A stretch of DNA of 64,000 nucleotides, taken from IMG/VR virus record IMGVR_UViG_3300027749_000044; one strand, given 5' to 3'. Positions 40,772-44,746 of the stretch are shown piece after piece (position 1 is the first letter of the stretch; the number at the start of each line of letters is the position of its first letter). This stretch comes from a virus. The notes beneath the pieces are model-generated. The model was not told the DNA's origin and did no database searches. It was given only the letters and a program-made list of their open reading frames with translations. The position numbers and the translations under genes are program-made.

Positions 40772-40960
40772 TTTTTATGGTTGCCATATGGCGGCCATAT
40801 GTTATTATGAATTATAACGTGAAAAGAGAGAAACAAAATGCCGTATGAAGTGACGAGTGTTTCGGAAGTGAACGAATTTGCTATCGAAGCCAACGAATCG
40901 GCTTTGGCGAAGCGCGAGGTAGGGCGCCGGGCCGAAGCCGCGCGGTATGACTAAATAAGA

Positions 40961-41277
40961 TCAATGGTTGTAAACTAAACTATTAAAAGCTGGGCAACAC
41001 GGGAGTGCGAATCTCCCCGCCTCCACCAAAGGTACACAGCCGCAACAGGTCTTGATGGGGCTATAAGCCAAAGTAGAGTGAAAGCCTCTACCTGTGTATC
41101 TTTGTTGGGGGCGAATAGAATCGACTGACAGTTAGTAGATAGAATAGCAACTCGGGTAGTTCCGTTAATGACTAAAAACTGTAAATGTCGCAGCTAATGA
41201 CAACACTGTGGAATTTGCTCTAGCAGCATAATCTACACGGGCTTTGCAAGTTGAGCCTCGGAACAGAATCAACTTGC
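40961..41277 (+). ncRNA. ssrA: Circularly permuted two-piece tmRNA
   Basis: Acceptor piece ends CGCCTCC-A-CCA (41018-41028); coding piece starts GGGGGCG (41107) giving G3:U70; tag ORF 41190-41231 AANDNTVEFALAA*; 3' pseudoknot; ACTAAATA upstream; 5' end approximate. Confidence 0.9.
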
Positions 41278-41694
41278 TTTTTTTCTTGCCCAATATTCTA
41301 GTTTTTTCTGTCGAATTTTTTCTTTTGTTTCGTCAGAATGTGGGCATTTTAATCCTCTATTCCAACACCAGTGATGTGGTATTCCTTTTTTTGATTCAGA
41401 AACTTTTTTCTTTGTTTCTTCTGACCGGACAATACCCTGTTGACCTTCGCCGCCGTCTGTTCTATTTCTAAGAACTCCAGTTTCAATATCTTTACGTCCA
41501 TACCACCGAATGTAGAATCGTTCAAGTGCAAAAGCACCCAATTCACTGAGATTGGATTCCATTATTACAATACGATGTTTGGGAGGTATACCAACAGAAT
41601 GTCTTTTGTCATATGCTCTTTTACCGGTTCCTTTACCAATGTAATAAGGTGTGCCATCTTCCCTTAGATAGGCATAGACGTAATAAATAAACAT
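41269..41694 (-). mobile_element. GIY-YIG homing endonuclease with NUMOD3-like repeats
   Basis: MFIYYVYAY..PYYIGKG..R..E..LRNRTDGGEG..RSEETKKK..HSDETKEK; stop lies inside the tmRNA 3' stem. Confidence 0.88.
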
Positions 41695-41761
41695 GTGCTG
41701 GGCTCCTTGTATGAGGACTAGAGTAGGTGGGACCGCTATCCGTGACCTACACATATTTATA
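41692..41761 (-). promoter_or_regulatory. Late promoter plus structured leader of the endonuclease (copy 1)
   Basis: TATAAATA; gtaggt/acctac stem; tcct/agga hairpin over the AAGGAG RBS. Confidence 0.7.
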
Positions 41762-41786
41762 CTAAATAAGGATACAGGACGAACAT

Positions 41787-41856
41787 AACGCACCTATGGC
41801 ACTAGCGGCGTAAGCCGTGCCGGGGTTCGGGGAGTACCTTGCAACAGAAACTCCCC
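41787..41856 (+). ncRNA. Second tmRNA tag-plus-pseudoknot module
   Basis: aac gca cct atg gca cta gcg gcg taa (NAPMALAA*), then cggggt/accttg and ggggagt/actcccc stems with AACAGAA linker. Confidence 0.75.
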
Positions 41857-41906
41857 ACTTTCACTAAATAGTTTATCCAACCACAGGTAACAAACAGGAG
41901 GCAGAC

Positions 41907-42068
41907 ATGGTCTATCTTTTATTGTTCGTTATTATTATAGGTGGGATATTATATTTTTTTCATGCATTAGAAGCGATCAGAGTGAAAGACGAATTGCTCA
42001 CTGCAAACGCAAAATTGAAGCTAGCCGAAGAAAAAATCGTCAAATTAATGGCGAAACATAGACACTAA
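41907..42068 (+). CDS. Small membrane-anchored coiled-coil protein (not in ORF track)
   Basis: AGGAGG RBS; MVYLLLFVIIIGGILYFF.. Confidence 0.6.
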   Translation: MVYLLLFVIIIGGILYFFHALEAIRVKDELLTANAKLKLAEEKIVKLMAKHRH

Positions 42069-44474: not shown

Positions 44475-44563
44475 TTAAATGATGGTATAAATAAACATGC
44501 TGATGCTCCTTGCTAGCTATTAGAGTGACTGGGCACCCAACCGCGAGTCACATTATATTTATA
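44475..44563 (-). pseudogene. Endonuclease remnant: late promoter, structured leader (copy 2) and MFIYTII* stub
   Basis: Same layout as 41692-41761 with compensatory changes; same atgtttatttat start. Confidence 0.7.
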
Positions 44564-44671: not shown

Positions 44672-44746
44672 GGCCCTGTAGCTCAATGTTAGAGCAAACA
44701 ATTCTAAACTGTTAGGTTGTGGGTTCAAGTCCCACCGGGGTCGCCA
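44672..44746 (+). tRNA. Amber suppressor tRNA (CUA)
   Basis: aacaa-ttCTAaa-ctgtt arm (A31-C39 mismatch), normal D and T arms, G73, CCA. Confidence 0.78.

Follow-up and report, generated by a model that had tools for sequence, protein, structure and literature searches.

A phage tmRNA gene followed by an antisense homing endonuclease gene and an orphan tmRNA 3' tail

Why should a phage genome hold two 3' ends of a transfer-messenger RNA (tmRNA) gene, with a homing endonuclease gene lying between them on the opposite strand? The question is raised by the window considered here, a stretch of 64,000 nucleotides (nt) from IMG/VR record IMGVR_UViG_3300027749_000044, which is part of a contig of about 151 kb from a T4-like phage of lake water. 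The order of the locus is a complete permuted tmRNA gene, an antisense endonuclease gene and an 80-nt orphan tmRNA 3' tail, and the endonuclease gene is thus flanked by two modules, each made of the end of a tag reading frame and a pseudoknot (modules 1 and 2 from here on). The safest reading of this arrangement is that it comprises one working tmRNA, which uses module 1, one intact endonuclease unit and one orphan tail of another allele. As to how it arose, we see roughly an even chance that the locus is the scar of a one-sided recombination triggered by the endonuclease, module 2 being the displaced remnant. The locus is carried by three public assemblies, which are identical over the stretches compared.

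The tmRNA gene consists of the following elements:

40950-40957, plus strand: late-promoter-like motif ACTAAATA(AG) before the tmRNA gene, from motif enrichment
40966-41284, plus strand: complete permuted (alpha-type) tmRNA gene, from Rfam RF04321 and direct reading
40966-41028, plus strand: acceptor piece, with the 3' strand of P2, the T arm, the acceptor 3' strand CGCCTCC, the discriminator A and CCA, from RF04321 and direct reading
41029-41106, plus strand: intervening segment of 78 nt that separates the two tmRNA pieces, shown as an insertion by the Rfam alignment
41107-41189, plus strand: start of the coding piece, with the acceptor 5' strand GGGGGCG, P2 and the region ahead of the resume codon, from Rfam and the profile of relatives
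41190-41231, plus strand: tag frame of module 1, AANDNTVEFALAA and a stop codon, by direct reading
41238-41284, plus strand: pseudoknot of module 1 and seven T, from pairing scans and model R1

That this gene is complete is indicated by its match to RF04321, which spans 40966-41231 and the full length of the model (positions 1-213) with 86.7 bits, compared with a gathering score of 47. The gene order is permuted, the acceptor piece coming first and the coding piece second, with the P2 pairing formed between the two. GGGGGCG (41107-41113) pairs with CGCCTCC (41018-41024), which is followed by ACCA, and the resulting acceptor stem has a G3:U pair; the T arm aligned to the Rfam model within the acceptor piece. 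Alanine charging, SmpB binding and processing into two RNAs are its predicted functions. The length of the intervening segment varies widely among relatives. The tag codons of module 1 (41190-41228) end in ALAA and are closed by a TAA stop codon at 41229-41231. In the pseudoknot behind them, stem 1 joins CGGGC (41238-41242) to GCC(T)CG (41255-41260), four of the five pairs being formed, and the 9-bp stem 2 joins GCAAGTTGA (41246-41254) to TCAACTTGC (41269-41277), with the loop AACAGAA at 41262-41268 and the seven T at 41278-41284. The pseudoknot scores 54.0 bits with model R1, and its hairpin is worth -13.5 kcal/mol. Stem 2 and the T run are the probable end and terminator of the tmRNA; a simple terminator scan did not flag the hairpin because its loop has 14 nt. 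A profile built from the tmRNA 3' regions of 49 relatives aligned to 41108-41284 with 81 bits, while the alphaproteobacterial tmRNA model RF01849 aligned to the module 1 side (model positions 40-270) only as far as the tag stop codon.

Beyond the endonuclease gene, the second set of tmRNA elements is the following:

41785-41864, plus strand: orphan tmRNA 3' fragment of 80 nt, from the profile of relatives' modules
41785-41813, plus strand: tag end of module 2, with (D)N codons, APMALAA and a stop codon, from the profile alignment starting at ATAAC
41821-41856, plus strand: pseudoknot of module 2, with a 6-bp stem 1, a 7-bp stem 2 and the loop AACAGAA, from Rfam and covariation

The same profile of 49 relatives matched this fragment with 47.9 bits (E value 8e-16), its alignment beginning at the ATAAC of position 41785, which corresponds to the Asp-Asn codons of the ANDN stretch of the tag. 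The AAC at 41787-41789 is followed by APMALAA and by a stop codon at 41811-41813. Stem 1 is formed by CGGGGT (41821-41826) and ACCTTG (41836-41841), and stem 2 by GGGGAGT (41829-41835) and ACTCCCC (41850-41856), with the loop at 41843-41849. RF01849 gave a separate local match at 41738-41859 (38.9 bits, E value 2e-9), which covers the last 120 positions of the model and is well aligned from about 41779 onwards, and model R1 scored the whole of module 2 (41800-41863) at 66.2 bits. Nothing tRNA-like was found by ARAGORN or Rfam between 41695 and 41785, and a terminator scan found no terminator after module 2. The module has neither acceptor stem nor T arm, P2 or resume codon, and therefore would be unable to act as a tmRNA alone; it is most likely a relic, the displaced remnant of a different tmRNA allele. 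The possibility that it is a second tmRNA that was deleted internally and kept its promoter and 5' end was rejected, given that only TAT(G)ACTAAATAAG is shared and no other similarity rises above that of shuffled sequences.

These observations agree with much of what a first-pass annotation, made from the letters alone, had described. Both modules were read where it had placed them, on the two sides of the antisense endonuclease gene, and every one of its sequence statements was checked; the homology of the second module does start in the ANDN codons, that module does score against the alphaproteobacterial model, and an in silico joining of the two modules at their shared AAC reads AANDNAPMALAA, as it had proposed. 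ARAGORN reported no tmRNA in the window, nor any after in silico excision at the AAC join or at a join in stem 1. This program misses about half of the relatives' tmRNAs that Rfam or BLAST detect and, since it was blank on both excisions too, its failure is uninformative with regard to the modules. The claim that both have the same two-stem topology with different sequences was borne out by a covariation test on 38 distinct modules of related phage tmRNAs, carried out against shuffles and slid controls. In these 38 sequences, 86.5% of the cells of the two-stem pseudoknot were paired (61% in shuffles), double-sided changes amounted to 113 (36.5 in shuffles) and the covariation score was 0.62 (0.18 in shuffles), all slid controls being lower. 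Both modules of the window conform to the pseudoknot that this covariation backs.

Related loci for comparison were fetched through the neighbouring DUF932 gene (80 loci), the block around the resume codon (24) and the APMALAA tag (2). About 50 tmRNA loci of related phages are uninterrupted, with no endonuclease and a single module. They are distant, the proteins of neighbouring genes being only about 50-70% identical to those of any relative, and there is no close outgroup. Modules 1 and 2 are identical at 28/45 positions in the tag region and at 32/52 in the pseudoknot region, and would thus derive from different alleles, or from copies with a long history of divergence. Over its last 45 nt, the tag region of module 1 is closely matched in the uninterrupted genes of L122 (42/45 identical, tag AANDNNVDLALAA), L114 (41/45) and L119 (40/45), all of which have the same block ahead of the resume codon as the tmRNA of the window, and the tag of L022 reads AANDNSSVEFALAA. 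The tag of module 2 is closest to that of L125 (ANTNAPMALAA, 36/45), and tags ending in APMALAA occur only in other, more distant tmRNAs, namely those of L125, L079 (ANDNYAPMALAA) and L126 (ANDNFAPMALAA). For the pseudoknots, no relative exceeds 69% identity to that of module 1, and the stretch that follows the stop codon in module 2 (41814-41865) shares 79% identity with L102 and 77% with L119, two loci in which a tag like that of module 1 is combined with a pseudoknot like that of module 2. In other words, it is the downstream copy that matches relatives for the pseudoknot and the upstream copy that does so for the tag (93% vs 80%), and tag and pseudoknot identities point in opposite ways as to which 3' end arrived with the endonuclease. 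Given the mix found in L102 and L119, donor and recipient roles are not assignable to the modules. One and the same tag was found with three different pseudoknots among relatives, and tags and pseudoknots appear to have been freely reassorted in this group. Exact-pattern scans of IMG/VR with a 19-mer of the tmRNA body and a 20-mer of the module 1 tag returned no match, and a 17-mer of the module 1 pseudoknot returned only chance matches in coding DNA. As a separate observation, L101-L124 are identical over about 30 nt around the resume codon, while their tmRNA bodies are otherwise very different; these loci were selected by that block, which biases the comparison, but the mosaic that they form suggests that tmRNAs exchange their tag regions.

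The gene between the two modules and its leader are placed as follows:

41269-41694, minus strand: free-standing GIY-YIG/NUMOD3 homing endonuclease gene of 141 amino acids, from Pfam, PHROG and structure
41695-41761, minus strand: endonuclease leader with an AAGGAG ribosome-binding site (41708-41703), hairpins and a perfect TATAAATA late promoter (41761-41754), from direct reading and motif scans

The protein matches PHROG 314 (homing endonuclease) with an E value of 5e-9, and contains a NUMOD3 domain above the Pfam cut-off (E value 3e-6), a second NUMOD3-like repeat being visible in the alignment. Pfam's own GIY-YIG model stayed below threshold; a profile matches GIY-YIG proteins of the Protein Data Bank (PDB) with an E value of 1e-3, the N-terminal domain is predicted with a pLDDT (per-residue model confidence) of 83-94 over residues 1-70, and its ten best structural matches are all GIY-YIG domains (of PD-T4-3, UvrC and I-TevI), with Z scores of 5.2-7.5. 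The protein belongs to a very large family (6085 homologues); all residues that are invariant in the family alignment are present, including Tyr, Arg, Glu and Asn, and, as natural homologues of 136-145 amino acids exist, the 141-residue protein is not truncated. On the basis of its sequence and its predicted structure, then, the endonuclease looks intact. Its TGA stop codon is the complement of 41269-41271 and so lies within the 3' strand of stem 2 of module 1, as the first-pass annotation had noticed, and the perfect TATAAATA sits about 60 nt upstream of its start codon, on its own strand. The relic of a second unit of the same family was found at 44486-44563, also antisense and directly abutting a tRNA-Ile(UAU) gene. 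It retains the TATAAATA promoter, the AAGGAG-containing leader and four initial codons (MFIY), a stop being reached after seven codons, and it shows that the endonuclease unit has its right edge at 41761. Accordingly, the endonuclease is a discrete, self-contained unit (41269-41761) whose boundaries take in no tmRNA sequence. Its close homologues occupy unrelated intergenic sites.

Two further elements lie between this unit and the orphan tail:

41761-41768, plus strand: late-promoter-like motif ACTAAATA facing module 2, overlapping the TATAAATA of the endonuclease on the opposite strand
41769-41784, plus strand: filler of 16 bases without a match, separating the promoter motifs from the point where tmRNA homology begins

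The motif ahead of module 2 had been pointed out in the first reading of the sequence, and it proved to be enriched in the window, where eight copies of ACTAAATA were found, compared with 3.4 expected, only 2 of 100 shuffles reaching eight. All but one of the eight lie on the plus strand, most of them with an open reading frame (ORF) starting 20-90 nt further downstream, and the 10-mer ACTAAATAAG is present at 40950, 41761 and 52278, the first two copies preceding the tmRNA and module 2, respectively. As the motif is enriched, lies upstream of ORFs and is common to the tmRNA and module 2, the site ahead of module 2 may be active. A third copy of ACTAAATA, at 41863, already serves the next ORF. 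A 12-13-mer, ATTTATACTAAAT, made of back-to-back late-promoter motifs, recurs in many related phages (for instance L047:14405, L041:14659 and L079:5468), and lies about 1-2 kb downstream of the tmRNA in the four loci inspected.

A sequence of events can be proposed that would integrate these elements. During co-infection, the endonuclease would have cut both strands of a tmRNA allele that lacked an endonuclease gene, within the conserved ANDN codons, and the break would have been repaired from the endonuclease-bearing genome with homology on the tmRNA side only, that is, by non-reciprocal recombination. With homology on one side, the tail of the broken allele would have remained downstream. 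Module 1 would then serve the working tmRNA, and transcripts starting from the ACTAAATA at 41761 would carry module 2 merely as a leader towards the 53-residue ORF that follows. Two features lead us to favour such a one-sided repair triggered by the endonuclease: the orphan tail starts in the most conserved stretch of the tag, and the endonuclease gene is packed against the pseudoknot of module 1. The causal link, the direction of the swap and the expression of module 2 are what we infer from this arrangement.

Several observations weigh against this proposal. The endonuclease gene lies between a terminator and a promoter, which is an ordinary landing place of free-standing endonuclease genes, and it could postdate the duplication. 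Within 1.5 kb of its 80 closest homologues in IMG/VR there is no tmRNA module (7 of the 80 lie near tRNA genes); its association with a tmRNA is so far unique to this phage among these loci, and a tmRNA target of the enzyme is therefore something that we infer. No near-identical endonuclease-free allele of this phage was found, the three assemblies that bear the locus being identical over it, and exact-pattern scans of metagenome contigs with the resume block plus AAC(A/G)C, or with the exact pseudoknot of module 2, gave no match. The 16 bases at 41769-41784 show no significant similarity to the tmRNA 5' region, the pre-tag region or any fetched locus. Finally, second pseudoknots were found in three relatives, namely L040 and L063 (10960-11300 and 10840-11170, by model R1 and the pairing scan) and, more weakly, L037 (8540-8930, below the R1 threshold and recognised by eye). 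In all three a small sense ORF comes directly after the tmRNA and precedes the second pseudoknot, and tblastn found no endonuclease, so duplication of the 3' end also happens without one and the tmRNA 3' end looks like a recurrent breakpoint in this phage group. These small ORFs of 66-81 amino acids start with M..TP(Y/F)E(I/L)R and had no family match; in L040 two near-identical pseudoknots flank an ORF of 69 amino acids, and in L063 and L037 the two copies differ. It is hence possible, although on balance doubtful, that the duplication was unrelated to the endonuclease, which would have entered the spacer between terminator and promoter when a partial second module was already present behind the terminator. 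Such a history agrees with the many unrelated intergenic sites occupied by relatives of the enzyme, and with the fact that deleting 41269-41761 leaves the terminator directly before ACTAAATAAG. It would, however, make a coincidence of the position of the endonuclease stop codon inside stem 2, and it has to face the fact that tag codons were kept only in the window, and from the most conserved tag stretch, where the target of the endonuclease would be expected; the second copies of L040 and L063 lack them (the R1 match starts at model position 9 or 12), as does that of L037 by direct reading.

The first-pass annotation had gone in a different direction, proposing that the endonuclease forms a mobile cassette together with the tag end and pseudoknot of module 1, that this cassette invaded at the AAC a tmRNA with the tag ANDNAPMALAA, of which module 2 would be the native end, and that it spreads by swapping degradation tags. 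We consider this unlikely. The start of module 2 homology at ATAAC and the endonuclease stop in stem 2 of module 1 would be accommodated, the natural tags ANTNAPMALAA, ANDNYAPMALAA and ANDNFAPMALAA do exist, there is a mitochondrial precedent (PMC3630166), and it is the module 1 pseudoknot that has no close relative, whereas that of module 2 is canonical, matches the Rfam 3' consensus and scores higher with R1 (66 vs 54 bits). That part of the claim which places the endonuclease between the tmRNA and a second module stands. The predicted contiguous ANDNAPMALAA was not borne out by the closest available endonuclease-free relatives, which carry tags like that of module 1 (including L022), and no relative has it on this type of tmRNA body among about 50 uninterrupted loci. 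Moreover, the module 1 tag and the spacer that follows it are 89-93% identical to the contiguous tags of L122, L114 and L119; since these have the same resume-codon block, nothing marks a junction at the AAC ending at 41204. Together with the edges of the endonuclease unit, which exclude the tmRNA, the 80 nearest homologues speak against the idea as well, and there is no sign among them of a recurrent tag-swapping cassette. A more ambitious version, in which the GIY-YIG endonuclease would home into phage tmRNA at the ANDN codons, drag along a foreign tag end and pseudoknot, rewrite the proteolysis tag and leave an allele immune to further cutting, with the displaced end behind its late promoter perhaps still transcribed, seems to us improbable too. 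A functional role of module 2, be it that of a small RNA or of an alternative 3' end transcribed from its own late promoter and kept by selection, for example as a stabilising leader of the 53-residue ORF or as a decoy of tmRNA partners, is very improbable. The stems and tag frame of module 2 are intact and ACTAAATAAG, a motif that is enriched and found upstream of genes, precedes it, but the same intactness would be expected of a recent relic, the overlapping TATAAATA of the endonuclease accounts for the motif, no tRNA-like domain, resume codon or terminator accompanies the module, and the only copies available are identical and give no measure of its conservation.

Three other candidates were rejected. 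A group I or group II intron in the tmRNA does not fit, as no intron family was detected in 40850-41950 even at E values up to 10, module 1 is closed by a stop codon, a pseudoknot and a T run of its own, and the endonuclease gene is antisense. A segmental amplification of the SegB type should yield near-identical tandem units, which the two modules are not. A crossover within stem 1, giving a hybrid of module 1 tag and module 2 pseudoknot like those of L102 and L119, fits the identities and needs a circular or tandem donor; it is not separable from ordinary mosaicism, because one tag occurs with three pseudoknots among relatives.

If the one-sided repair is correct, the locus would be the RNA-gene counterpart of arrangements described in other systems. 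In fungal mitochondria (Allomyces atp6; Glomus atp6, atp9, cox2 and nad3), endonuclease ORFs occur with an inserted C-terminus, the native C-terminus being displaced (PMC3630166). There, as here, a gene core is followed by a 3' end, an endonuclease ORF (of the GIY-YIG type in atp9) and a second, diverged 3' end, and the two ends are strongly different, which is consistent with a different source or a long divergence. In contrast to these protein genes, the phage gene encodes an RNA, and the free-standing endonuclease gene beside it is read from the opposite strand under a promoter of its own. The downstream copy of the fungal genes groups with close relatives, whereas here tag and pseudoknot give a mixed result. 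A second parallel is provided by genomic islands and prophages in tmRNA or tRNA genes, where the RNA gene receives a restored 3' end from the invading DNA, at the far end of which lies the displaced fragment of the original gene (Islander, PMC4383910). Those elements reside in bacterial chromosomes and depend on tyrosine integrases and short, identical att repeats, while the present locus has no integrase, has ends that are only about 62% alike and belongs to a lytic-type phage genome. Within phages, the precedent would be T4 SegB, a free-standing GIY-YIG enzyme of the tRNA cluster that cuts tRNA genes, its targets being RNA genes of relatives without the endonuclease, and drives the inheritance of flanking RNA genes (PMC2330249), thus being likewise an enzyme of this class beside phage RNA genes. 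SegB can also create repeats of an RNA gene plus endonuclease through microhomology, by a segmental amplification (PMC13096335) that gives identical tandem units, unlike the diverged modules found here.

Two-piece tmRNAs themselves are known in the aquatic T4-like phages Melnitz and HTVC008M (PMC9004378), which share with this phage an alpha-type permuted tmRNA near a gene for a gp33-like coactivator; that work mentions no endonuclease insertion or second 3' module. The neighbourhood of the locus has weak DNA similarity to Melnitz. Genes for a gp59 loader, a cell-wall hydrolase and a DUF932 protein adjoin the tmRNA locus according to Pfam, and the gp33-like coactivator and PhoH are encoded nearby according to the gene tables of near-identical contigs. 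A neighbouring protein of 202 amino acids had no relatives in an IMG/VR search. The first gene after module 2 is the following:

41863-42068, plus strand: third ACTAAATA motif and the ORF of 53 amino acids that it precedes

No family match was found for this ORF in Pfam or PHROG. Further downstream, ARAGORN identified a tRNA with the amber-reading anticodon CUA at 44672-44746, adjoining the tRNA-Ile(UAU).

Two-piece tmRNAs of aquatic phages are known. As to their evolution, the locus described here would show that phages can exchange the tag end and the terminal pseudoknot, which form the mRNA-like 3' part of a tmRNA, as a block, and it would provide the first homing endonuclease at such a junction in an RNA gene, comparable cases being fungal mitochondrial protein genes. 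The mixing of tags and pseudoknots, together with the second pseudoknots of L040, L063 and L037, marks the tmRNA 3' end as a recombination hotspot. Moreover, should the ANDN codons be its target, the endonuclease would represent a natural enzyme directed against one of the most conserved short coding stretches of bacteria.

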